The notes: generated from the letters alone by a model not told the origin. Positions 1 through 13,251 are shown, counted from the first letter of the stretch. The stretch: 64,000 nt of DNA from Dehalococcoidia bacterium (GCA_963664365.1 OY761144.1:2281596-2345595), one strand, 5' to 3'. Numbers and translations: made by a program.

Positions 1-3000
1 AGCACCTGTCCATCGTCGCGGTGGGGTCTATCCCCGCGTGTGCGGGGGAGCCGCATATCGAGCGAATCCGCCGGATCGCGGACTCGGTCTATCCCCGCGT
101 GTGCGGGGGAGCCGGAGACGCCGGACTATACAACCCCACCTACGAAGGTCTATCCCCGCGTGTGCGGGGGAGCCCGACGGCCCGACCATGCGATTCTCTA
201 GCTGTGAGGTCTATCCCCGCGTGTGCGGGGGAGCCAAAGACCGCCATTTCGTCGAGAATGTCCGCCAGGGTCTATCCCCGCGTGTGCGGGGGAGCCCCCT
301 CCATGGATAGGCAGCAGGCAAAGACCGAAGGTCTATCCCCGCGTGTGCGGGGGAGCCGATGTACTCAATGTTTCCCATCGCGCTGAACGAGGTCTATCCC
401 CGCGTGTGCGGGGGAGCCATAAAGGAGAGAACTATGCGGAAGAAATATCGAGGTCTATCCCCGCGTGTGCGGGGGAGCCCGAACTCCCAGAAGGCGGACG
501 GGTCCTGAGCCGGGTCTATCCCCGCGTGTGCGGGGGAGCCTGTTAGGCATGGATAAGCCGTACAGCAATCATAGGTCTATCCCCGCGTGTGCGGGGGAGC
601 CTCACGCTCGCCGCGCTCGCGGTCATGGCCGGGGGGTCTATCCCCGCGTGTGCGGGGGAGCCTGCTCGATGGGCGAGAGGTCCTGGCGCTGGACGGGTCT
701 ATCCCCGCGTGTGCGGGGGAGCCAAAGCGGCGATGGAGTTGGCCGAACTATATCAGGGTCTATCCCCGCGTGTGCGGGGGAGCCCTCTCCTCCTGTCGGC
801 CGTCGGCCGGCCGACGCGGTCTATCCCCGCGTGTGCGGGGGAGCCGGTGATCCTCATGAGTCGAAGATCGGCATCATCGGTCTATCCCCGCGTGTGCGGG
901 GGAGCCCCCAGATTCAAGCGCCCAGTCTTGACGAGAGCCGGTCTATCCCCGCGTGTGCGGGGGAGCCTACGCTAGGTCTTCCTCAGTCGCGTTTTCGCGC
1001 GGTCTATCCCCGCGTGTGCGGGGGAGCCTTATCGCACAAGTCATGCAAGTTATGTACACGGGGTCTATCCCCGCGTGTGCGGGGGAGCCAGCAGCAGGCT
1101 CATGGGGTCCCATGCTGCAAAAGGTCTATCCCCGCGTGTGCGGGGGAGCCCGGGTCGTCGGCCAGGACGGTGATCCCGATGGAGGTCTATCCCCGCGTGT
1201 GCGGGGGAGCCGCCTGTCCGCAACCCGCAGATTAGCACTTACGCGGTCTATCCCCGCGTGTGCGGGGGAGCCGCGCCCAAGGGGCCTGGGTTTCCCGGGA
1301 AATCAGGTCTATCCCCGCGTGTGCGGGGGAGCCTCCACATTGGGGTCGGAGGCATACGCCTACGAAGGTCTATCCCCGCGTGTGCGGGGGAGCCGGGTGG
1401 ATCGTGGTTAGTATGTCGGTGAACGACGGTCTATCCCCGCGTGTGCGGGGGAGCCGGCTTTGGCGTGGTTAGTATGTCGGTGAACGACGGTCTATCCCCG
1501 CGTGTGCGGGGGAGCCGGCTTTGGCGTGGACGGCCGCGGCGGCGGCGGCGGTCTATCCCCGCGTGTGCGGGGGAGCCCGACCCAAGCAGGTCATGATCAT
1601 CAAATGTCCGGGTCTATCCCCGCGTGTGCGGGGGAGCCCTGCCCGGACAACCACATCGCACTATGCGAGAGGGTCTATCCCCGCGTGTGCGGGGGAGCCA
1701 CGCCCAAGGGGCCTGGGTTTCCCGGGAAATCAGGTCTATCCCCGCGTGTGCGGGGGAGCCGGATAGCTAGATCCTATCACACTCGGTGGGACTGGTCTAT
1801 CCCCGCGTGTGCGGGGGAGCCCGGAGGGGATGGATGGAGCTATCGTACAAGCTCGGTCTATCCCCGCGTGTGCGGGGGAGCCGACTACGGACGATACCGT
1901 CCAGAAGGTGGCACAGGTCTATCCCCGCGTGTGCGGGGGAGCCGGAGAGATCACCATACGTCGGCGTCGCAGGTGAGGTCTATCCCCGCGTGTGCGGGGG
2001 AGCCGCCGGCAAGCACCTTTGGTCATACGACAAAGGAGGTCTATCCCCGCGTGTGCGGGGGAGCCTGCCGGCTCTGATGTAGTATTCACAGTGGTCTGGG
2101 TCTATCCCCGCGTGTGCGGGGGAGCCGTCCATGCCGAGATTGATGGCTACAATCTCGCCGGTCTATCCCCGCGTGTGCGGGGGAGCCCATTGGCTAGACT
2201 TTGCGTAGGTGTGGAAGTGCGGTCTATCCCCGCGTGTGCGGGGGAGCCAGACGCGCCCAGTTTTCAGTCCTCGATGGTGACGGTCTATCCCCGCGTGTGC
2301 GGGGGAGCCTGACTGCCACGCATATCTGCGCCTTGCGATGGCGGTCTATCCCCGCGTGTGCGGGGGAGCCGGTCGCGTGCGGCCCGTACTCCTCGTACTC
2401 CTCGGTCTATCCCCGCGTGTGCGGGGGAGCCCAATGTCTTCCCTGCCCCCTCTGGTCAGGAACGGGTCTATCCCCGCGTGTGCGGGGGAGCCCCCCACAG
2501 CACATTCAGGGTGGACGCCACCTACGGTCTATCCCCGCGTGTGCGGGGGAGCCTTCGCCCTCGACGAACGAGGCGTCGTCCGAATCGGTCTATCCCCGCG
2601 TGTGCGGGGGAGCCGTCATCAAGCTCTACGCACGTGTCTTCGGCGGGGGTCTATCCCCGCGTGTGCGGGGGAGCCCTGGGTTCCCCGAACCCCTGACTGG
2701 GTTCGTGAGGTCTATCCCCGCGTGTGCGGGGGAGCCCGCCATCCGGCCTGCTGGAAGCAATAGCCCGGAGGTCTATCCCCGCGTGTGCGGGGGAGCCATG
2801 TAGCGTAAGTTGGTGTCCAAATCCTCGATGGGTCTATCCCCGCGTGTGCGGGGGAGCCGAGCGTCATGCCTTGCAGATCAACGCTGTGCCAGGTCTATCC
2901 CCGCGTGTGCGGGGGAGCCTGATAGTCAGATGGGATCTCCTATGCTGAAGCCGGTCTATCCCCGCGTGTGCGGGGGAGCCCCGGGGTTCCTGAGTGGCAC

Positions 3001-3895
3001 CCGCCCGAATGGAGGTCTATCCCCGCGTGTGCGGGGGAGCCTCTGTGACGCTGATTCTGGTGTTTGCCGTGTAGGGTCTATCCCCGCGTGTGCGGGGGAG
3101 CCAACGGAGGACTGTACGCAGTCGGGGAAGAAACCGGTCTATCCCCGCGTGTGCGGGGGAGCCCGTATCGCCATTATCTTCTCCTTGGTTTTCTGGGGTC
3201 TATCCCCGCGTGTGCGGGGGAGCCTAGAACAGTCAAATACTCTTACGGCGCCGCCTGGGTCTATCCCCGCGTGTGCGGGGGAGCCTTGGACGACGACGAG
3301 CCGGAGGACGAGTTGATCGGTCTATCCCCGCGTGTGCGGGGGAGCCGGCAGGCCGGGCGGCGCCCAGCTCACCGGCTGCGGTCTATCCCCGCGTGTGCGG
3401 GGGAGCCGACCCGGGCAATCTCCTCACGTCGGACAACGCCGGTCTATCCCCGCGTGTGCGGGGGAGCCGGCAGCTTCGGCAGTCGCGGCAGGCTCGGCAG
3501 CGGTCTATCCCCGCGTGTGCGGGGGAGCCACGCGCGCCTCGACGGCGCGCAGGGGCGGAGGAGGTCTATCCCCGCGTGTGCGGGGGAGCCAACTTGCACA
3601 TAACTTGCACATTACGGAGGTCAGGTCTATCCCCGCGTGTGCGGGGGAGCCGAGATGCTCTATGAGCCTCTAGGGAGGCTGTTAGGTCTATCCCCGCGTG
3701 TGCGGGGGAGCCATCCCCGCGTGTGCGGGGGAGCTTCCTTAGATAGGTCTATCCCCGCGTGTGCGGGGGAGCCAGGGCGTCCCGGGCGAGCGCCAGATGC
3801 TCCAACGGTCTATCCCCGCGTGTGCGGGGGAGCCCTCCGCTTCCTGTCCTGCGTGACGGCGCGATTGGGTCTATCCCCGCGTGTGCGGGGGAGCC
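1..3895 (-). CRISPR. Type I-E CRISPR array, 64 repeats in window; array continues beyond the left edge
   Basis: GGTCTATCCCCGCGTGTGCGGGGGAGCC recurs with a strict 61-nt period from 25 to 3868 (28-nt repeat plus 33-nt spacer). Its reverse complement GGCTCCCCCGCACACGCGGGGATAGACC has the I-E architecture (6-bp GC stem, ACAC loop, AUAGACC handle), so crRNA sense is the minus strand, as for the cas genes. The window starts inside a spacer. Confidence 0.97.
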
Positions 3896-3946
3896 TCTTG
3901 ACAACGTGATTGAACACGGCCAAGAGTATTCGTAAACCGAATAATG
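3896..3946 (-). promoter_or_regulatory. CRISPR leader (only 51 nt between cas2 stop and first repeat)
   Basis: A+T-rich 51-nt stretch between the cas2 stop codon (3947-3949) and the cas-proximal repeat (3868-3895), at the position of the I-E leader. No promoter hexamers could be called confidently. Confidence 0.5.
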
Positions 3947-5225: not shown

Positions 5226-5966
5226 TCATTCGCGGGCGGGACGCAGCAGAAGCATCCCGTATCCGTAGGCGCGATGGCGTCCGACTCCGTTTGCCACGAG
5301 GTCTGCGAACTCTGCGGGGTCGGTCACAGTGAGGGTTCCCTGCATCACGGCGTCGGGGCCTTCGGATGCGCGGGCGCGAAGTTTGCGAACCACGCGGACC
5401 CTCTGGAAGGATTTCAAGCTCGCCTCCTCGAGGCGCGCGCCGCGCCGGGCGAGCCTGTCGGACAGCCAATCCTTGTAAACTTCCGCACGGCTGCGCTTCA
5501 TCTCCCCTTTGGCGTGGCGTTCCGCCTCCGACTGGAAGGCGTCCTGCTCTCTCATCTTCTTGCCCGCCTCGTCGGAGTCTCGCGCGTGTCTCACGACGGG
5601 GCGGATCAGGACCTCGAATCCCAGACGCTGCCCGGTTCGCCACGATTCGGGCATGGTCTTGCTGTCGATGCTCGAGGCGGGGAGTATCTTGGACTGGAGC
5701 GGACACGCGAAGGTTCGCGCCTCGTCTCGGAGCTCGTCGGCGTCGCAGGCGGCATATCCGTAGAACGTGCCGCGCCCGCTCTTGCGCTCGCGAGGGATGA
5801 TGACGCGGAACGGCTTTGGCGCGGTCTCGCGCCCGAAGCTCTCGGTAATGAGGCAGTGCATGGCGAAGCCGGGGTCGAAAGCGTTTCGGCTGATCATGCC
5901 TCTCGATCCGGCCCAGCGGTAGAAGGAGCGCAGGTCTATGTCGGCGCGTATCATGTTGGTGGTCAT
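5226..5966 (-). CDS. cas6e: Cas6e (CasE) crRNA endoribonuclease
   Basis: 246-aa ORF with C-terminal GVGRHRAYGYGMLLL, typical of the CasE glycine-rich loop. Canonical operon position, 4-nt overlap with cas5e. Confidence 0.85.
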   Translation of the reverse strand: MTTNMIRADIDLRSFYRWAGSRGMISRNAFDPGFAMHCLITESFGRETAPKPFRVIIPRERKSGRGTFYGYAACDADELRDEARTFACPLQSKILPASSIDSKTMPESWRTGQRLGFEVLIRPVVRHARDSDEAGKKMREQDAFQSEAERHAKGEMKRSRAEVYKDWLSDRLARRGARLEEASLKSFQRVRVVRKLRARASEGPDAVMQGTLTVTDPAEFADLVANGVGRHRAYGYGMLLLRPARE

Positions 5967-6712
5967 GGCTGTTTCTCCTTGATTCCGAAGCAGTCCTTGT
6001 CCGCGCTGCCCTCATGCACCAGTCGACCGCCGCCGTGAAGACCTGAGACCCAGTTGCGTTCGTCGGTGAGCATATAATCACGGTTGGAGGAGACGGCGTC
6101 CACGCCCTCGCCATCGGGCCAGAGCATCGCCACTCGCCGCGGTGCTTCTTTTGGGCAGGCGAGCGGCGTTTCCAGAAGCGCCGCCAGTACGCTCGGAGCA
6201 TCGACGAAGCCGCCGCACAGCCGCGTCGACGGCAGGCAAGGCTTCCGACCAATGAACAAGGGGCGCATCGGCTCGTCGAGTTTGGCCGCTAGTTCTTCCA
6301 AGGCCGGCTCTTCGTCCGCACACTCAAGGCGCAAGGCGACAGTGACGCGCATGTCGGCGTAGTAGTCGCGGTAGCGCAGGTGGGGCGCATTGTAAGTGTT
6401 TGCGCCACCGGCGCGGCCTTCCGGCGTCCCTCGGGTGGTCCAGCCTTTGTCGTCTTTGTTCAACTGCGCGGTCTGAAAGTCTCTCATGCTGAGACCGCCA
6501 TGTGGTTTGCGGTCGATTCGGGCGGCGAATATGATCCGGTCCTGCAAGTCCTGGTGCCGCGCTCTATCGACACGCCGCCAGCCGAGCGCGTTGGCGAACA
6601 GCCCGGTCAGCATGGACGCCGCCGGGAATGGACGGATGACGCCGTAGTTGTCTATGGTCTCGCCGCCGAACGCCATCATTGGCGATTCGAGGTTGAGTAT
6701 GAGGTGTCGCAT
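5963..6712 (-). CDS. cas5e: Cas5e (CasD) Cascade subunit
   Basis: 249-aa ORF, MRHLILNLESPMMAFGGETIDNYGVIRPFPAASMLTGLFANALGW, a Cas5e N-terminal pattern. Operon order fits. Confidence 0.85.
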   Translation of the reverse strand: MRHLILNLESPMMAFGGETIDNYGVIRPFPAASMLTGLFANALGWRRVDRARHQDLQDRIIFAARIDRKPHGGLSMRDFQTAQLNKDDKGWTTRGTPEGRAGGANTYNAPHLRYRDYYADMRVTVALRLECADEEPALEELAAKLDEPMRPLFIGRKPCLPSTRLCGGFVDAPSVLAALLETPLACPKEAPRRVAMLWPDGEGVDAVSSNRDYMLTDERNWVSGLHGGGRLVHEGSADKDCFGIKEKQP

Positions 6713-6715
6713 GGT

Positions 6716-7873
6716 TCACGCCGCCTTCCCGTCGCGGACGGCTCCGGCGGCCCAGGACGCGAGGTCGTCAAAGGGAACTCGCTCCGCATTGGGAACGTCG
6801 CAGTCGTCCACCGACATGATCCGCCGGCTCTCCCGTGCGCCGTATGCGTTGTCCAGCTTGGACAGATGGGAAGACAGGGCGTTTGTCGCCTTGTCAACTT
6901 GCGGATTCTTCACGGGACATCGGAAGGCGTTGGCGAGGCTGCGGGGCTGGCGCGACCCCGCCTCGACCAGCATCAGGTTGGCGTAGGAGTAGGGCGCGGT
7001 GGAGCCGAGTTTCGCGCCGGGCGACACGGTGGCGATCAGGTGGATGAGGTTATGCACCACTTGACCCGCCAAGACTTTTGACCCCGACAGGTTGGAGACC
7101 AAGTTGGGCACGTCCACGACGACGTAGCCGTAGAAGAGGCCGGCGGTGAGTTCGACGTCGCCGATGTGGTCCGCGCCCGGGTCTTCGTCGTCGCCTTGCA
7201 GGTCGTCCACGACGGAGAAGTAGTCGCTCTCGGACTCTTCAGGGTGTACGGTGAATGCGTGGGCGACGTGGACGGCGGCTTCGATGTTCGCTGCGGGGTC
7301 GGAGGTGACCATTCTGCCGAACAGCGCGCCGGTCAGTCCGCCGGGCAAGGTTGCGCTCTGCCTGAACGCGTGGAAGTTCTCGCGCTGCTCGTTGGCGCGC
7401 TGGCTGCTGAACAGCAACTTGGCGGCTTCGGCGGCGGCCTCCGCATCTTCCGAATGGGTCTCGCAGATCGTTTTGGCCTGCGTTTGGAGGTACTCGACCT
7501 CCGGGAGCCCGAGCAAGAGCGGCTGCCGTCCGCTCCTAGTCGTGCCCTTGTCTCCGTACACTCCCTTCTGGAACTCTTCCTCGACTCCGTTGAGGAGGTC
7601 GTCGGAGTAATTACCCGATTCACGGAGGGGCTGCATGATGCTGCGCGTGACGGTCTCGCGCGAGCGCACGGCGTCCGCCGCGCCGTCGATGTTGCCAACC
7701 GCGAACTCGTCGTCCGCCACGCGCCAGTGGCGCTTGAGGCACTGCGACGACACGCGAGTCCGAGTCGCGCCGCCGAACGGCATCCGCTTGGCTAGGCCGC
7801 TGTCGTCGCGGTTCAGCAGGGCGGCAGGGTAGGAGTGCAGCGTGTGGATTTGTAGGAATCTTGGGATGGTCAT
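6716..7873 (-). CDS. cas7e: Cas7e (CasC) Cascade backbone subunit
   Basis: 385-aa ORF, FLQIHTLHSYPAALLNRDDSGLAKRMPFGG...RVSSQCLKRHWR, a CasC signature. Operon order fits. Confidence 0.9.
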   Translation of the reverse strand: MTIPRFLQIHTLHSYPAALLNRDDSGLAKRMPFGGATRTRVSSQCLKRHWRVADDEFAVGNIDGAADAVRSRETVTRSIMQPLRESGNYSDDLLNGVEEEFQKGVYGDKGTTRSGRQPLLLGLPEVEYLQTQAKTICETHSEDAEAAAEAAKLLFSSQRANEQRENFHAFRQSATLPGGLTGALFGRMVTSDPAANIEAAVHVAHAFTVHPEESESDYFSVVDDLQGDDEDPGADHIGDVELTAGLFYGYVVVDVPNLVSNLSGSKVLAGQVVHNLIHLIATVSPGAKLGSTAPYSYANLMLVEAGSRQPRSLANAFRCPVKNPQVDKATNALSSHLSKLDNAYGARESRRIMSVDDCDVPNAERVPFDDLASWAAGAVRDGKAA

Positions 7874-7898
7874 TTGGTTTCTCCTTGTTGTGGTTTCA

Positions 7899-8513
7899 CT
7901 ATTCGCTTTCCGTGGTGTCAGGCTGGAAGCGACGCTGAGCCTGAAAGTATTCGCGGGCGATGCGGTGTCGGTGCCGCTCCGCCGCAGTATCGTTGAATCC
8001 GTTGTTGCGAATGAAGTTCGCCATCTCCCGCCAACTGAAGGTGACGTTTGCAGCGGCCAGCATCCGGAAGGCTCTCGCCAGCAGTGTTCGAGTCATGTCG
8101 CCGCGCGAGGTTAGCAACCGCTTGAGACGAGCTTCGCTGTAGAATCCCTGCTCCCGGGTCGTTTCGCCGCCAAGATATAGCGCGCGGCCGACCGGCATCT
8201 GCCCGTCATGCGCCGTTGCTCTATCATTATCCCCGCCCTTCGGCGTCATGAGGGCTATTCCATGAAGGATCAACGCCCATTTCTTTTCTACTTCGGGCGG
8301 ACCGAACAGTTCTTCCCGAGCCAGCAGTCCCATCAGCGCCGGCGAGTCGGTGCGGTCCGGGTCCATTCTGCGGAGTTCGGCCAAGTCACCTCGCCCGAAG
8401 CCTTCCTGGGCCACCTGCCAAGCGAATTTCGTTGCAATGTCGCCCCAAGTACGGGGCGCTCCGTTTTGACCTTCCACTTTCGACGTTGCAGTGTCAGACG
8501 AGCTAGTTGTCAT
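7899..8513 (-). CDS. cse2: Cse2 (CasB/Cas11e) small Cascade subunit, 204 aa
   Basis: ATG at 8513 (MTTSSSDTATSK...) overlaps the cse1 stop by 11 nt. The ORF-track start at 8615 lies inside cse1. Helical protein at the Cse2 position. Confidence 0.8.
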   Translation of the reverse strand: MTTSSSDTATSKVEGQNGAPRTWGDIATKFAWQVAQEGFGRGDLAELRRMDPDRTDSPALMGLLAREELFGPPEVEKKWALILHGIALMTPKGGDNDRATAHDGQMPVGRALYLGGETTREQGFYSEARLKRLLTSRGDMTRTLLARAFRMLAAANVTFSWREMANFIRNNGFNDTAAERHRHRIAREYFQAQRRFQPDTTESE

Positions 8514-10092
8514 TATCCTCTCCTTTCTCCGTGAACAAGAACGACAGTCCATTGTTGCCGCGTATGCGTCCCTCGAACAATCCCTCGGCGGCAACGCGGG
8601 CCTTGTAACGTTCAATCTCAGGACATGGTAGGGAGTCTATGGCGTCGTCCAGAATCTCGCGGGCGTGGTCAACCACGCCGTCCTTGTCGTCGTTCATCAG
8701 CCACTCGTTGAGGATGCGCTGCCGTTCATCCCTGTCATCGGCCTCGAACTCCGTCTGAAGGGCCTCAAAGAATTGGTCATCCACGATCTCGTCTAGTCTA
8801 TTCAACCAGGGACGAGCGAGGTTTCTATGCTCCGGGCTGACCTTGTCGGTCTCGCCTCTGGCCAAGAAGACCTGGATCGCATGGCTGAGTATTCGTTGGA
8901 CTATGCCGATCTGCTCAATGCGTTTGTTGGCGATCTGGCCGAGATCGTCCGTCGCTGGGCCTCCACGTAGCATGGCCGACTCTAGTTTCTTCCGAATGGG
9001 GATCGTACGCTCGTAGTAGCCCTCGGTCTTTCCTTGTCCACGCACCATCCCGCGCGCAACGAGTTGCATCGTGTCCAAAGAGTGAATCTCAGCGTTCGTT
9101 GGTCTGCACAGAATTGGCCGATCCCATTTGACGAGGTAGTCCACCGTGCGCTTGTAGGTGAACCCCCCGGAGGCGAGTGTCAGCGACTTGTTGCTGCCTT
9201 GGTCAACTGGAGTCCAAGGGTCACCCGTGATGCCGTTGAGCGCTTTGGCCTCGATACGGGCAGACTTCGACGTCGCCCTGACGGTATGTAGCCTTCCGTC
9301 GTCTCCGACGCGCAGACGTATTCGCCGGCAGACCTCTATGTAAAGAGGGTCAAGATCATTCAAGAGCAACGATTCCGACTTCGCGCCATCCCATGGAATA
9401 GTCCAGAGAAGGCCGGCGCCGCCCTCCCTCATGGGAAAGTTGTCCAACAGGTCGTTATATCGCTCCAACAGCACGACGATGTCGCGTCGGACATGTCCGC
9501 CCGTTCGGGTGGACGGGGTGACGCTGAACGCGGGTCTGCTGCCCAGTCCGCCGTTCATCCGCGAGATGCCATAGTTGCCCGCCCCCGAGAACCCCTCTGA
9601 AGTCTGAAGGCTGATCAGCGCGAGAATCAGGTCGTCATATTCGCTTGCGACGGCGACAGCCGATTTCACATCATGATTCTTGGACGTAACCAGCATGTCC
9701 AGCTCGTCAGGTGTTTGAACCGTGCTCTTGTACTCGGTTGCCTTGTCTTCAGAGGACGCGGGCGGCTGCATGAACGCGGGCTTGGTGATGTCGTCTACCA
9801 CCAAGTGACAAGGTTCGTCGTCGGGGAAGTCCGGCAGCGTGAGGCCGCGAATGAGGTTGTACCAAGTCTCGGCGTCCGCCGGGGGATCGGTCATGTCCGC
9901 CTTGTGCATCGCCATCGCCCCAAGCTGGACGAGGAAGGCGTGCCATGCGTGTCGCTGGTGAGGCCGCAGGGCGGTGAAGGCTTCCACCTCGTTCGCCATG
10001 AGCGCGGCATAGACTTCCGGCAGCGACGCCTTCTCGCGTGAGCCGTCGGATAGGTTCATTCGGATTAGGCGGTCATCTAAGATGTTGTGCAT
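8503..10092 (-). CDS. cse1: Cse1 (CasA/Cas8e) large Cascade subunit
   Basis: 529-aa ORF, MHNILDDRLIRMNLSDGSREKASLPEVYAALMANEVEAFTALRPHQRHAWHAFLVQL, a Cas8e N-terminal pattern. First gene of the Cascade block. Confidence 0.88.
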   Translation of the reverse strand: MHNILDDRLIRMNLSDGSREKASLPEVYAALMANEVEAFTALRPHQRHAWHAFLVQLGAMAMHKADMTDPPADAETWYNLIRGLTLPDFPDDEPCHLVVDDITKPAFMQPPASSEDKATEYKSTVQTPDELDMLVTSKNHDVKSAVAVASEYDDLILALISLQTSEGFSGAGNYGISRMNGGLGSRPAFSVTPSTRTGGHVRRDIVVLLERYNDLLDNFPMREGGAGLLWTIPWDGAKSESLLLNDLDPLYIEVCRRIRLRVGDDGRLHTVRATSKSARIEAKALNGITGDPWTPVDQGSNKSLTLASGGFTYKRTVDYLVKWDRPILCRPTNAEIHSLDTMQLVARGMVRGQGKTEGYYERTIPIRKKLESAMLRGGPATDDLGQIANKRIEQIGIVQRILSHAIQVFLARGETDKVSPEHRNLARPWLNRLDEIVDDQFFEALQTEFEADDRDERQRILNEWLMNDDKDGVVDHAREILDDAIDSLPCPEIERYKARVAAEGLFEGRIRGNNGLSFLFTEKGEDNDN

Positions 10093-10137
10093 AGGTGAAT
10101 CTCTTCTCCTACCAAGATATAGGTTGCCGGCGGCTGT

Positions 10138-10299
10138 TTAAGCACTGTTGTTTCTGGTATTATTATTGAGGATACTGATCGCAGACCTGAGTGTCCTGCA
10201 CTCGAAATTGAGCTTGTCGTACTTGTATTTAGCTTTTGCCAATTGAATCTCCCTGTGTTTAAGGCTATTCTCGAGGGCAGATTGTGGTGATGGTTTCAT
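10138..10299 (-). CDS. Small ORF (53 aa) in the cas3-cse1 gap, function unknown
   Basis: ATG at 10299 preceded by GAGG (6-nt spacing). Translation MKPSPQSALENSLKHREIQLAKAKYKYDKLNFECRTLRSAISILNNNTRNNSA. Codons mostly A/T-ending (AAA, AAT x3 in a row, AGA, AGG, TTG), unlike neighbouring genes. Below the ORF-track length cutoff. Coding status unproven. Confidence 0.3.
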   Translation of the reverse strand: MKPSPQSALENSLKHREIQLAKAKYKYDKLNFECRTLRSAISILNNNTRNNSA

Positions 10300-10337
10300 C
10301 AGCTGCCTCTGCTGAAACTTACCTAATCCAGATATTC

Positions 10338-10366
10338 ACCCTAGCAGACTATTCCTCCGCCGTCAA
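10338..10366 (-). promoter_or_regulatory. Candidate promoter for the small ORF (TTGACG-17-TAGGGT)
   Basis: The minus strand reads TTGACG (10366-10361), a 17-nt spacer, then TAGGGT (10343-10338), about 40 nt upstream of the 10299 ATG. Confidence 0.3.
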
Positions 10367-10442
10367 CCCCATGGTTGGCCAAAATCGGTTTTTGGCCTAG
10401 CTTAAGATGATGTATAGCATCCTATATTTCGCTGATTACGAA

Positions 10443-10451
10443 TGATATATT
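10443..10451 (+). promoter_or_regulatory. Candidate extended -10 promoter (TGATATATT) for the psi-CRISPR unit
   Basis: A TGnTATAAT-like element on the plus strand ends about 10 nt before psiR1 (10461). Confidence 0.35.
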
Positions 10452-10460
10452 AGCATCAAG

Positions 10461-10534
10461 AGCCTCATGCGAGGCGATAGACCCATCTGCATCAGTTTAG
10501 TGCAGTTTTCCCCATACACATGGGGTCCTCGACC
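10461..10534 (+). ncRNA. Degenerate CRISPR-like unit psiR1 - 21-nt psi-spacer - psiR2 (CreA/CreR-like candidate)
   Basis: psiR1 (10461-10483) AGCCTCATGCGAGGCGATAGACC is a 5-bp hairpin followed by the exact last 8 nt of the repeat. psiR2 (10505-10534) GTTTTCCCCATACACATGGGGTCCTCGACC keeps the ACAC loop and a 6-bp stem via two compensatory changes relative to CCCCGCACACGCGGGG, and ends in GACC. Confidence 0.55.
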
Positions 10535-10551
10535 GCCGGGGCTGTGTCCGC

Positions 10552-13251
10552 CTAGAGTTGGCGCAGCCCTAGGCGGTCGTACACGAAGCGGCGGTCACCG
10601 ACGGCGAACGTGAAGCCGCCCTCTGTCGGAGACGGGGTCTCCGGCGCCTCTCCCTCCGGCAGCCAGCGCACGGCGACGGACAGCTTGTTTATCTTCTTCG
10701 AGGCGTCGAACGGGCTGGGCTGAGGCGGGTCGAGGGATAGGTCTATGCGGTCGTCGCCGAGCCGCGTCCGAATCTTTTCTTCTTTGGCTCTGAAGAGAAC
10801 GTCGCCATTCGTCATCTCTGGAAACTTGAAGAACCGCTCGCCACGCTTGATGGTGACGCCGCTGGCGGTTTGCCCGTCTCCTATATCGCCGCCCTTGATT
10901 TGCTTCGTGTGTTCCTCCCATTTCTCGCCCTTCTCCTCGGAGATGGCCTTCAGCGCCTCGGGATGGGTCGCGCGCTCGACTAGTTGGCGGTTCATCTTTG
11001 GGATGCGCCATTCGGGGTGTTCGCAGATCAAGCGCCGCGTCGCTTCGAGAATGGCTAGGTTGGGGTACACGTGGCCCTTCGGACCGAGGCCGTTGGCGTA
11101 CTGTCCACTGTCCAGCAGGGGCGACAGATCGCCGCCGTCCGGCGTCAGGACGATGCACTTGGGGGAGTCGTAGCGGTCGGGACGGTCGTTGTCTTTGTGA
11201 CGGTGGAGGCGTCCGATGCGCTGGAGGAGGACGTCCACCGGGCAGAGGTCGGTTATGAGGAGGTCGGCGTCGATGTCGAGGGACTGTTCGAGGGTCTGAG
11301 TTCCGACGACGACGCGGCCTCCGGACTGCCTGCCCTTGCCGAGCAGTTCTTCTATTCGGTTGTCGAGCATCGCGCGGTCGCCGGCGGCGAACCGCCCGTG
11401 ATGCAGGGTCGTCTTTCCCATAAGGTCGAACAGCATGCCCCGGTCATCTTGACCGGCTATCTCTTCGAGCGCCTGCTGGGTTTCGACGGCGTGGCCTACG
11501 GTGTTCCTCACGACGAGAACCTTGGCGCCGGCGCGGGCGGCGTTCAGGGCGCGTTGTGCGGCGCTCTTGAAGTCGCGCATGGCGGGCGTCGCTTCCATGG
11601 AGACCGTCTTCTTCCGGTCGTTCTCGCCGGGGTCGGACATGTCCGCTCTCGTGCTGACGGCGGGGTATGGCTTGCGTATCTCATCGTCGAGAGCCGAATC
11701 GTTAAGGTCTCCCCTGCGTCCGCGATTCAGCCAGCGACGGCGGGCAGCGGAGCCGAGCGTGGCGGACATGAGAAGCGCGTATCCGCCCGCGCCGACGTGG
11801 GCATCGAGCAGCGCTTCGAGGACGACGCTCATGTAGGTGTCGGAGGCGTGTACCTCGTCCACGACGAGCAGGTTGCGGGCGAGGCAGGCGGCGCGCATGT
11901 GGGCGTTCTTGACTTTGAGCGCGCCCATCATGGCTTGATCGACAGTGCCGACGGCGACCTGGGCGGCGAGGTATCGCTTGCGGTTCTCGGATGCCCAGGG
12001 CCTGTCGTGGTCTTCATTGTGGCCGGCAGAGAGGGAGTCGTAGTCCCGCATTGCTACTTTGGCCGCGTCTTTGCCGGGTTCGTAGCCGGGCACGGCGCGC
12101 ACGACGGGCGGAGCGTCAAGGGGAAAGAGGTTGGCGATGAAACTCTCGACCCGCCCGTGTATCTGTTTGGCGGCGGAGCGTGTCGGCAGGGCGAAGTAGA
12201 TGCCGTCCACCAGTCTTTTCTCGTACATCTTGGCGAACCGCCATAGCGCGGCCTCCGTCTTGCCGGAGCCGGTCTCGGACTCGATGATGACGAGGGGTTC
12301 TTCCAGTGGCGTTTTGGTTGCGGCCTCCTGGATGGCGTTGGGCGGCTTGTCGATTTTGGGGAACAACTCCCCGAATTCGGGCACGCCCTTGAAGTCGTTT
12401 CTCTGAGCGGACAGATTCAGCCCTATCCCGTCGATAGCTCGCTTGGCGCGCTCCCTGGCAGTGTCAATGTAGTCGTCACGGGGTTCATCGCAGTATTCGA
12501 AGTAACATTCGTCGGAGCCGATCCAGTCGGCCCAGTTGCACAGGCCCAAGAACATGTGCTGAAAAGCGGGAGCGGCCGGCAGCGCAGACCCTCCCTGCTT
12601 GAACGCCTCAGGGAACCAGTCGCGAAGTCGCTTGCCGATGTCCTCAACGAAGCGGCGCGGACTCAGGTCGCCGAACTTGCGCCAGATAGCCGGGTTCTTG
12701 CTCAGGTCACTTTCCAGTTGCAGAGGCTTGCCGTGATGCGAGAGCGTAGCGACCAGCATCCCGCAGACAGTCTCGCCCTCCCTGTCGTCCCAAGTTAGGA
12801 AGTCGTCCCACCATCCCAGCGCGTCGAAGAACCACTCGGCGGTCTCTCGATCTTTATTGGCGTCGAGGACCGGAACCATATCGTTAGTGTGGCCGGCCCA
12901 ACCGGGCTCTCGTCTGCCCTGAAAGTCCTCGGGCCGCCATACCTTTGTCTGAAAGCCCATGTTGGCCTTGCCGATGTCGTGGAGGGCGGCGAACACGGAA
13001 AGTCGGGCAATGAGCGACTCGTCTAGGTCGTCGAGGCCGGCGGTCGTGGCGAGACGCTTCCGGATGGTGGGCTGTTGGACCAGGGCCTCGAAGCAGGCGC
13101 CGACGTCGGCTAGGTGGTGTTCGAGCAGGTGGATTCGTTTGGGATAGGCGTCGCGCGGCTCGGCCTTTGCCCAGTGGTATCGGGTATAAATCGCGGGTTC
13201 CATGTTGTTCATCGTCACTGCGCTCCCAATAGGCATTGTACAGGTACGCAA
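10552..13251 (-). CDS. cas3: Cas3 HD nuclease / DEAH helicase (I-E)
   Basis: 899-aa ORF with HD motifs (LLEHHLADV, ALHDIGKAN), Walker A ESETGSGKTEAAL and VVDEVHA. The true start may be ATG 13212 (GGGAG upstream) rather than TTG 13251. Confidence 0.93.
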   Translation of the reverse strand: MRTCTMPIGSAVTMNNMEPAIYTRYHWAKAEPRDAYPKRIHLLEHHLADVGACFEALVQQPTIRKRLATTAGLDDLDESLIARLSVFAALHDIGKANMGFQTKVWRPEDFQGRREPGWAGHTNDMVPVLDANKDRETAEWFFDALGWWDDFLTWDDREGETVCGMLVATLSHHGKPLQLESDLSKNPAIWRKFGDLSPRRFVEDIGKRLRDWFPEAFKQGGSALPAAPAFQHMFLGLCNWADWIGSDECYFEYCDEPRDDYIDTARERAKRAIDGIGLNLSAQRNDFKGVPEFGELFPKIDKPPNAIQEAATKTPLEEPLVIIESETGSGKTEAALWRFAKMYEKRLVDGIYFALPTRSAAKQIHGRVESFIANLFPLDAPPVVRAVPGYEPGKDAAKVAMRDYDSLSAGHNEDHDRPWASENRKRYLAAQVAVGTVDQAMMGALKVKNAHMRAACLARNLLVVDEVHASDTYMSVVLEALLDAHVGAGGYALLMSATLGSAARRRWLNRGRRGDLNDSALDDEIRKPYPAVSTRADMSDPGENDRKKTVSMEATPAMRDFKSAAQRALNAARAGAKVLVVRNTVGHAVETQQALEEIAGQDDRGMLFDLMGKTTLHHGRFAAGDRAMLDNRIEELLGKGRQSGGRVVVGTQTLEQSLDIDADLLITDLCPVDVLLQRIGRLHRHKDNDRPDRYDSPKCIVLTPDGGDLSPLLDSGQYANGLGPKGHVYPNLAILEATRRLICEHPEWRIPKMNRQLVERATHPEALKAISEEKGEKWEEHTKQIKGGDIGDGQTASGVTIKRGERFFKFPEMTNGDVLFRAKEEKIRTRLGDDRIDLSLDPPQPSPFDASKKINKLSVAVRWLPEGEAPETPSPTEGGFTFAVGDRRFVYDRLGLRQL

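Follow-up and report, generated by a model that had tools for sequence, protein, structure and literature searches.

A CreR-like mini-CRISPR between cas3 and cse1 as a probable autorepressor of Cascade in a type I-E locus of uncultivated Chloroflexota

Introduction

CreA, known from CreTA modules of type I-B in Haloarcula and from others, is an RNA resembling a CRISPR RNA (crRNA) that acts through limited complementarity and is defined by its toxin partner, creT. CreR is defined for types I-B, I-E and V-A, and its Salmonella enterica I-E example has been tested experimentally; the feedback in that system was demonstrated to sense the crRNA load as well as anti-CRISPR proteins (Liu et al., bioRxiv 10.1101/2023.03.10.532045). 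A survey of bacterial I-E loci found mini-arrays in about 19 % of them. These typically lie between cas3 and cas8e, are read in the direction opposite to cas3 and target the cas8e promoter with a protospacer-adjacent motif (PAM), mismatches being tolerated at each sixth position; genes that intervene between mini-arrays and effector genes were likewise described as 'cargo' (Shmakov et al., bioRxiv 10.1101/2023.03.03.530964). In type I-F, viral Cracr and host CreA/CreR RNAs with short spacers assemble Csy complexes that contain fewer Cas7 subunits (bioRxiv 10.1101/2024.10.29.618823). Here we describe an element that probably belongs to the CreR type, located at positions 10461-10534 on the plus strand of a 64,000-nucleotide (nt) stretch of DNA from a Dehalococcoidia bacterium (GCA_963664365.1 OY761144.1:2281596-2345595), hereafter the window, in which all positions are counted from the first letter.

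Like Salmonella CreR, the element is a degenerate mini-CRISPR within a type I-E cas locus, in which a first pseudo-repeat (psiR1) keeps the 5' handle and a second (psiR2) the hairpin of the 3' handle, and its pseudo-spacer is partly complementary to a PAM-flanked promoter site upstream of casA/cse1. It would also share with that system an autorepression by Cascade that senses crRNA load and anti-CRISPR proteins, a function predicted here from the sequence alone. The surveyed mini-arrays offer further parallels, namely the position in a long cas3-cas8e gap, the orientation opposite to cas3, the seed-plus-PAM match in the cas8e promoter, the tolerance of mismatches at every sixth position and the cargo genes that sometimes intervene. 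This is no new kind of system, and the element probably belongs to the already published CreR/mini-array type. An initial annotation of this DNA had implied that such an RNA was new to a locus of this kind, a suggestion contradicted by the published I-E examples, i.e. Salmonella CreR and the cas3-cas8e mini-arrays.

A mini-CRISPR unit opposite the cas genes

Two repeat-like sequences flanking one spacer-like sequence are found in the gap between cas3 and cse1, 6.5 kb from the main array. On the plus strand the unit reads AGCCTCATGCGAGGCGATAGACC (10461-10483, psiR1 with the handle), CATCTGCATCAGTTTAGTGCA (10484-10504, the pseudo-spacer of 21 nt) and GTTTTCCCCATACACATGGGGTCCTCGACC (10505-10534, psiR2), and every string quoted in the initial annotation was recovered in place. 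Its parts are the following:

10461-10476, plus strand: psiR1 stem-loop, AGCCTC ATGC GAGGCG, the presumed Cas6e site that makes the 5' end
10477-10483, plus strand: 5' handle ATAGACC, with which the array repeat also ends (its last 7 nt)
10484-10504, plus strand: pseudo-spacer of 21 nt, with the guide, ATCTGCATCAGTTTAGTGCA, at 10485-10504
10505-10525, plus strand: psiR2 3' handle, GTTTT followed by the hairpin CCCCAT ACAC ATGGGG
10526-10534, plus strand: degenerate tail of psiR2, TCCTCGACC, which would be lost upon Cas6e cleavage

The psiR1 hairpin has exactly the 6+4+6 geometry of the array repeat, with five pairs and one A.G, and lies directly 5' of the handle. The 8-mer GATAGACC, claimed to equal the end of the repeat, does match the last 8 nt of the crRNA-sense array repeat (GGCTCCCCCGCACACGCGGGGATAGACC, minus strand), and the C at 10484 would be the eighth handle nucleotide. 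Likewise, psiR2 forms a perfect 6-bp stem with an unchanged ACAC loop; relative to the array repeat, two of its pairs carry compensatory changes, in line with the earlier description. Its tail is degenerate in nearly all related units, with the hairpin retained. Both psiR1 and psiR2 are less like the array repeat than they are in most relatives.

The pattern ATAGACC + 15-39 nt + 5 nt + a perfect hairpin (6 bp, 4-nt loop) was searched in the window and in 200 dinucleotide shuffles. Exactly one such unit occurs in the window outside the array (60 kb). In the shuffled controls, which had been proposed as a check on the annotation, units that also have a psiR1 hairpin average 0.005, and none carries the ACAC loop as well. 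A chance origin of the unit is excluded. Nor does the unit look like part of an adaptive array, as its repeats are degenerate and it holds a single, self-targeting pseudo-spacer of 21 nt, versus array spacers of 33 nt. An Rfam scan of 9900-10800 at E ≤ 10 returned noise only, with no CRISPR-DR or other family, and folding of the whole precursor RNA was uninformative (z = -1.4), the minimum-energy fold pairing other segments and the psiR2 hairpin appearing in the centroid only.

Conservation and selection in related loci

A Cse1-based scan with one genome per species yielded 57 related loci (82-42 % Cse1 identity), mostly from metagenome-assembled genomes of Dehalococcoidia and Caldilineaceae (Chloroflexota). 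The unit finder required a perfect psiR2 hairpin and accepted any pseudo-spacer length of 15-39 nt. The same unit, upstream of cse1 and antisense to it, was found in 39 loci (the window and 38 of the 57), so that the CreA/CreR-like architecture put forward in the initial annotation, a Cascade-loadable crRNA-like unit opposite the cas genes with the handle supplied by psiR1 and the Cas6e hairpin by psiR2, is recurrent. Of the 43 related loci whose cas3-cse1 gap measures 195 nt or more, 37 have it, whereas all 10 with shorter gaps lack it; it is kept across the clade down to about 50 % Cse1 identity. The consensus unit consists of a variable stem-loop, the ATAGACC handle, the pseudo-spacer, (G/A)GTTC followed by CCCCGCACACGCGGGG, and a degenerate tail; positions T18, A19, C22 and C23 of the handle are invariant (37 loci). 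A metagenome scan with Cse1 gave eight loci, none with the unit under the criteria used, and a generic short-spacer pattern used to look for viral mimics gave no viral matches. A 19-mer of handle plus pseudo-spacer did match one AT-rich phage gene family; no hairpins were present there and the match was attributed to chance.

Covariation across related I-E loci, suggested earlier as a check, was observed for both hairpins. Across 37 loci, 74 % of the cells of the psiR1 stem are paired versus 66 % in shuffles, and its covariation score is reached by none of the 500 shuffles and by no slid control; in the psiR2 stems, three pairs have changed on both sides. In synteny-based alignments, which are free of the finder's bias, the psiR2 stem reads CCCCAT/ATGGGG in the window and in L066, CCCCGC/GCGGGG in L001 and L068, CTCCGC/GCGGAG in L002 and L003, and CCCCGG/CCGGGG in L069. 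The parts retained are those that a mature I-E crRNA would keep, and the drifting parts, i.e. the body of psiR1 and the tail of psiR2, are what Cas6e would be predicted to discard.

The close relative L066 was found via the small open reading frame (ORF) that precedes cse1. The window and L066 share 48 of the 49 nucleotides of handle, pseudo-spacer and 3' handle (7/7, 21/21 and, for psiR2, 20/21, respectively), compared with 76.5 % identity for the 5' region of cse1, about 70 % for the 3' region of cas3 and 76.6 % for the DNA from the -35 box to psiR1. Between the two loci psiR1 differs by a compensatory change at pair 5 (T-A to G-C) and a G-C to G.U change at pair 2, and the predicted target differs at positions 6, 12 and 19 only. 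Because of this 48/49 identity within surroundings at 70-77 %, the compensatory pair and the confinement of target changes to 6, 12 and 19, the comparison argues for purifying selection acting on the unit and against a dead relic.

Several relatives show variants of the arrangement. On the antisense strand of L019 (-401 to -570 upstream of cse1) and of L038 and L044 (-469 to -770), a unit with a short pseudo-spacer heads an array of several spacers oriented divergently from cse1, the unit being the first, cse1-proximal element; consequently, regulatory unit and array can be contiguous. L052 (81 % Cse1 identity, gap of 146 nt) provides an example of circuit loss, as psiR1, pseudo-spacer, target and small ORF are deleted and only a broken psiR2 remnant persists beside the cas3 stop. 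In L067, the enlarged cas3-cse1 gap holds an extra 73-amino-acid (aa) gene (2266-2487) upstream of the mini-CRISPR, with a weak Pfam match to RHH_1 (ribbon-helix-helix), possibly an extra regulator or an antitoxin-like cargo.

Target, PAM and guide pairing

In each gap the best match to guide positions 1-17 was sought without a PAM constraint, positions 6 and 12 being ignored (15 scored positions) and the first pseudo-spacer nucleotide being counted as the eighth nucleotide of the handle. In 38 of the 39 loci the best site is found on the cse1-sense strand with AA-N in front of it (AAT in 18, AAC in 15, AAG in 4 and AAA in 1), which at a background AA frequency of 0.083 corresponds to P of about 3e-40. 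The first nucleotides of the spacers in the window's main array (G 24, T 22, C 16, A 1) fit a PAM in which AA precedes any base but A and the last base is co-acquired with the spacer.

Guide and target are identical in 97-100 % of cases at positions 1-5 and 10-11 and in 76-92 % at positions 7-9, and identity falls to background level at positions 6, 12 and 18 (34, 21 and 32 %, respectively). These dips appear to be the signature of the bases that Cascade flips out, and they argue against a simple sequence duplication. Guide and target co-evolve: the mean score of a guide in its own gap is 12.6 of 15, versus 9.06 ± 0.87 in the gaps of other loci, and for 28 of the 39 guides the own gap is the unique best match.

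In the window, the target site is predicted to be minus-strand 10333-10314 with the PAM at 10336-10334, next to a promoter that faces cse1:

10334-10336, minus strand: predicted target PAM, AAT (AA-N in 38 of the 39 loci)
10314-10333, minus strand: predicted protospacer, ATCTGgATtAGgTaAGTttc, pairing with guide positions 1-5, 7-8, 10-11, 13 and 15-17
10338-10366, minus strand: sigma-70-type promoter facing the small ORF and cse1, with -35 TTGACG at 10366-10361, a 17-nt spacer and -10 TAGGGT at 10343-10338
10443-10451, plus strand: candidate extended -10 of the unit, TGATATATT, with a predicted start at about 10458-10460, just before psiR1

The site matches the guide at 13 of the 15 scored positions, a value reached by none of 300 shuffled guides. 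When the search for a PAM-flanked seed site that had been proposed for the pseudo-spacer was carried out over the 64-kb window, it returned one site only with the full seed (1-5, 7-8) and an AA PAM. Its offset from the cse1 ATG, -241, is the same as that of the L001 target. The partial target suggested earlier, at 10174-10191, could not be upheld, since a bulge of 1 nt is required for the match, the PAM is out of register, and the site falls outside the top matches of the unconstrained scan.

In most of the 38 loci, a TTGAC(A/T/G)-16..18-TAnnnT promoter motif that points at cse1 is found 0-11 nt upstream of the PAM, and the TTGACG-17-TAGGGT version of the window is identical at 27 of 30 positions in L066. 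The predicted protospacer begins 1 nt past its -10 box and thus covers the expected transcription start. A scan of 9900-10800 for consensus promoters and terminators found nothing, TTGACG-17-TAGGGT itself remaining below the scanner's threshold because -10 boxes such as TAGGGT deviate from the consensus. As for the unit's own promoter, the extended -10 named in the initial annotation is indeed present, but it is weakly conserved: L066 reads CATAGT, with A2 and T6 kept and the TG lost. In compact loci psiR1 abuts the -35 box of the cse1-facing promoter, and the promoter of the unit must consequently overlap that region.

Pseudo-spacer length classes

The pseudo-spacer had been described as two Cas7 steps shorter than the array spacers, and its 21 nt do place it in a distinct class of 21-22 nt. 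Among the related units, lengths cluster in three classes. The longest comprises 19 units of 33 nt, with three more of 34 nt and single units of 32 and 38 nt; five units have 27 nt and nine have 21-22 nt, and no pseudo-spacer has a length between these classes. The long guides lose complementarity after positions 11-17, whereas those of 21-22 nt pair through position 17; position 9 is paired in 44 % of the short class, 60 % of the middle class and 92 % of the long guides. Truncation by Cas7 steps may thus be an alternative way of capping the length of the R-loop.

Shortening of E. coli spacers by 6, 12 or 18 nt removes one, two or three Cas7 subunits and weakens binding (Kuznedelov 2016, PMC5159557), and in type I-F both shortened pseudo-spacers and Cas7-depleted complexes are documented (bioRxiv 10.1101/2024.10.29.618823). 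A statement of the 33/27/21-nt quantisation was not found in the papers on CreR, mini-arrays and short-spacer complexes that are cited here. As a tentative extension, which we think less likely to be right than wrong, this type I-E clade might build 'mini-Cascades' with four or five Cas7 subunits, in which truncation is an alternative to PAM-distal mismatches as the means of staying below the R-loop that licenses Cas3, and the interchangeable small proteins encoded behind the target might be toxins or Cascade modulators. If so, the mini-CRISPR and its small-protein cargo would form a protein-toxin analogue of CreTA.

The PAM-distal, non-pairing part of many 33-nt pseudo-spacers is self-complementary (L005, L008, L022, L028, L033, L035, L041, L057 and others), and the mean folding z-score is -1.2, compared with -0.27 for the 63 array spacers of the window.

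The small ORF and the cargo slot

The first gene behind the targeted promoter is a small one:

10138-10299, minus strand: gene for a 53-aa single-helix protein, with the Shine-Dalgarno sequence AGAGG at 10310-10306

Its start lies 15 nt past the predicted protospacer. AlphaFold2 models the protein as one helix spanning residues 5-52 (predicted local distance difference test score of 93); Pfam gave only weak coiled-coil matches below the cut-off, and PADLOC gave none. The protein is 85 % identical to its L066 counterpart, which extends to 75 aa, and homologues occupy the same slot in L002, L003, L008, L053 and L066-L069. The family is rare, forming only 13 clusters among 5.8 billion proteins, and the four members whose contigs were examined are all located between cas3 and cse1.

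The slot between the targeted promoter and cse1 holds small ORFs of at least four unrelated families: the coiled-coil family (the window, L002, L003, L008 and L053), a second one in L001, L007, L035 and L041, a third in L017 and L026, and a Cys-rich CxxC family in L028 and L044 (by BLAST) and in L029, L030 and L038 (by eye). Where the target is at least 240 nt from cse1, a small ORF begins 25-50 nt after the protospacer; where it is within 150 nt of cse1, no ORF of at least 35 aa is found there. The slot resembles a hotspot for cargo genes that would be controlled together with the Cascade genes, and the 53-aa ORF can be flagged as a member of the regulated unit.

Proposed mechanism

The evidence above points to the unit being a CreR-type mini-CRISPR that autorepresses the cas genes of this type I-E locus, and we consider this reading likely to be correct. 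What is found is a pair of repeats around a single spacer-like sequence, retention of the 5' and 3' handles, a seed-anchored and PAM-flanked match in the cas promoter, and maintenance of the guide-target relationship.

Transcription of the plus strand would start from just upstream of 10461. By analogy with canonical I-E crRNA processing, Cas6e would cut each of the two stem-loops, psiR1 and psiR2, at its 3' base, after 10476 and 10525, giving a 49-nt RNA (10477-10525) that comprises the handle AUAGACC, the 21-nt pseudo-spacer and a 21-nt 3' hairpin handle. With the guide being 12 nt short, the E. coli data suggest a Cascade with about four Cas7 subunits instead of six. This complex would recognise the PAM AAT and pair with 10333-10314 at the promoter of the small ORF and of cse1-cse2-cas7-cas5-cas6e. 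The short and imperfect R-loop would block RNA polymerase without licensing Cas3, such that Cascade represses its own synthesis; this absence of cleavage is what would be expected from a 20-nt guide with four mismatches together with the published CreR and short-spacer data. The repression would be lifted when crRNAs from the 64-repeat array compete or when Cascade is inhibited, as in published CreR circuits.

A number of observations weigh against this interpretation. The duplex of the window is weaker than that of most relatives, with mismatches at positions 9, 14, 19 and 20. The 5' flank of the psiR2 hairpin is GTTTT, not GGCTC, and the psiR1 pair beside the cleavage site is an A.G, so that recognition by Cas6e is assumed. 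No promoter of the unit is conserved across the related loci, and the unit's own promoter is poorly defined. The 100 % pairing of the psiR2 stems is partly a product of construction, given that the finder demanded a perfect psiR2 hairpin. In E. coli, furthermore, spacers that are 12 nt shorter have a lower affinity for their target, and guides of more than 20 nt are still able to give interference on fully matched targets (Kuznedelov 2016, PMC5159557). Because of the four mismatches and the GTTTT flank, our confidence that the unit is fully active in this particular genome is somewhat lower than our confidence in its CreR-type nature.

Alternative explanations

The small ORF invites a different emphasis, according to which the RNA is the antitoxin half of a CreTA-like module: it would mainly repress the ORF at 10138-10299, whose product would be toxic upon loss or inhibition of Cascade, and cas autorepression would be secondary. 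Indeed, the protospacer is located 15-35 nt upstream of the start codon, which makes the small ORF the first gene controlled; its family is confined to the cas3-cse1 position, and the diversity of families in the slot resembles the published enrichment of cargo and toxin-antitoxin genes between mini-arrays and effector genes. We nevertheless regard this explanation as unlikely. The 53-aa protein shows no similarity to a known toxin or defence protein in the Pfam and PADLOC searches, and the prediction is of a single helix that is soluble and charged, not of a membrane peptide. The small ORF is apparently co-transcribed with cse1, a poor fit to a toxin that needs to be kept silent. In at least ten related loci, moreover, unit and target are placed directly before cse1 with no ORF between them, and the conserved target is therefore the promoter of Cascade.

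Slightly less probable again is a decaying relic, left by a once-functional mini-array or by a divergent second array and no longer working in this genome. The divergence of psiR1 and psiR2 from the array repeat and the four duplex mismatches are what decay would leave behind; relatives of the L052 kind have lost the unit by deletion with a broken psiR2 remaining, and the units heading real multi-spacer arrays in L019, L038 and L044 suggest that the forms interconvert. Decay is hard to reconcile with the near-identity to L066 of precisely the handle, pseudo-spacer and 3' handle, with the compensatory and G.U changes in psiR1 and the restricted changes in the target, or with a seed and PAM that are intact and unique in the window. 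Finally, the resemblance could be due to chance, or the hairpins could have another function: they might terminate cas3 transcription, bind a protein as a palindrome, or mark the beginning of a transcript antisense to the 3' end of cas3. The stop codon of cas3 is 27 nt away from psiR2, any plus-strand transcript would be antisense into cas3, an anti-Pcas promoter exists in E. coli, and no Rfam family matches the region. However, neither a U-tract nor a T-run follows the hairpin on either strand, the terminator scan of 9900-10800 was empty, and shuffles expect 0.005 such units; a terminator or palindrome also fails to explain the strand-specific handle, the PAM-flanked and co-evolving target and the 6-nt periodicity. 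This last explanation is thus highly improbable.

Relation to described systems

As a probable CreR-type autorepressor, the unit differs from its Salmonella counterpart in several respects. The host belongs to an uncultivated Chloroflexota lineage and is not an enterobacterium, the PAM is AA-N (AAT) instead of AAG, and the pseudo-spacer has 21 nt. Pairing is interrupted, with 13 of 17 positions paired compared with 15 consecutive nucleotides in Salmonella, and the predicted target adjoins the -10 box and the start of transcription, compared with a position some 140 bp upstream of casA in Salmonella. In addition, a small ORF is located between target and cse1. In the mini-array survey the upstream repeat was the better preserved one, whereas in the window it is degenerate save for the handle and the stem geometry; the surveyed I-E cases were scattered over the Cas3 tree, in contrast to the present unit, which is kept across a whole clade (37 of 43 long-gap loci).

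With CreA the unit shares the predicted use of a crRNA-like RNA to turn Cascade into a transcriptional repressor of a promoter beside the cas genes. Unlike in CreTA modules, the gene behind the target encodes a predicted helical protein of 53 aa with no toxin-family match, and many relatives have no gene there at all. Comparable to the I-F short-spacer RNAs and the engineered E. coli Cascades, the shortened guide would be expected to give a smaller backbone (four Cas7 subunits for a 12-nt truncation) that still binds DNA; those cases are of type I-F or artificial, whereas the units described here are host-encoded, of type I-E and fall into discrete 33/27/21-nt classes.

The unit would extend RNA-guided cas autoregulation of the CreR kind to uncultivated Chloroflexota, with an unusually clean evolutionary signature of Cascade binding (PAM, seed and neutral sixth positions) that is read from sequence alone. 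It further yields a PAM, AA-N, for this repeat family without recourse to phage data, and allows the promoter and operator of the Cascade operon to be annotated. The 33-, 27- and 21-nt classes could serve as a natural test set for the guide or R-loop length that separates repression from interference in type I-E.

The surrounding locus and the main array

The 64-kb window encodes a complete type I-E system on its minus strand:

13251-10552, minus strand: cas3 of the type I-E locus
10092-8503, minus strand: cse1, followed by cse2, cas7, cas5, cas6e, cas1 and cas2
5226-10092, minus strand: cse1-cse2-cas7-cas5-cas6e operon, with cas6e at 5226-5966 and NCBIfam matches to type I-E equivalogs

The operon is predicted to be both what is repressed and the source of the proteins that process and carry the RNA. 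The cas3-cse1 gap measures 459 nt and is AT-rich, with a GC content of 44-45 % versus about 62 %. The main array (25-3895) comprises 64 identical repeats of 28 nt, with spacers of 33 nt.

Between the cas2 stop and the first repeat lies an array leader of ~51 nt (3896-3946, minus strand). Homology between this leader and the DNA upstream of psiR1 (10420-10460, plus strand) was considered, as the two have TTACGAAT and a TCAAGAG junction in common, and was rejected, the alignment not being significant (P = 0.22); the TTACGAAT/TCAAGAG motif is absent from the leaders of the other loci. Near the leader end of the array (3685-3773), the repeats at 3746 and 3685 enclose a 33-nt 'spacer' that is mostly a partial copy of the repeat (3708-3735, 4 mismatches to the array repeat) and represents either a repeat-derived or a corrupted spacer.

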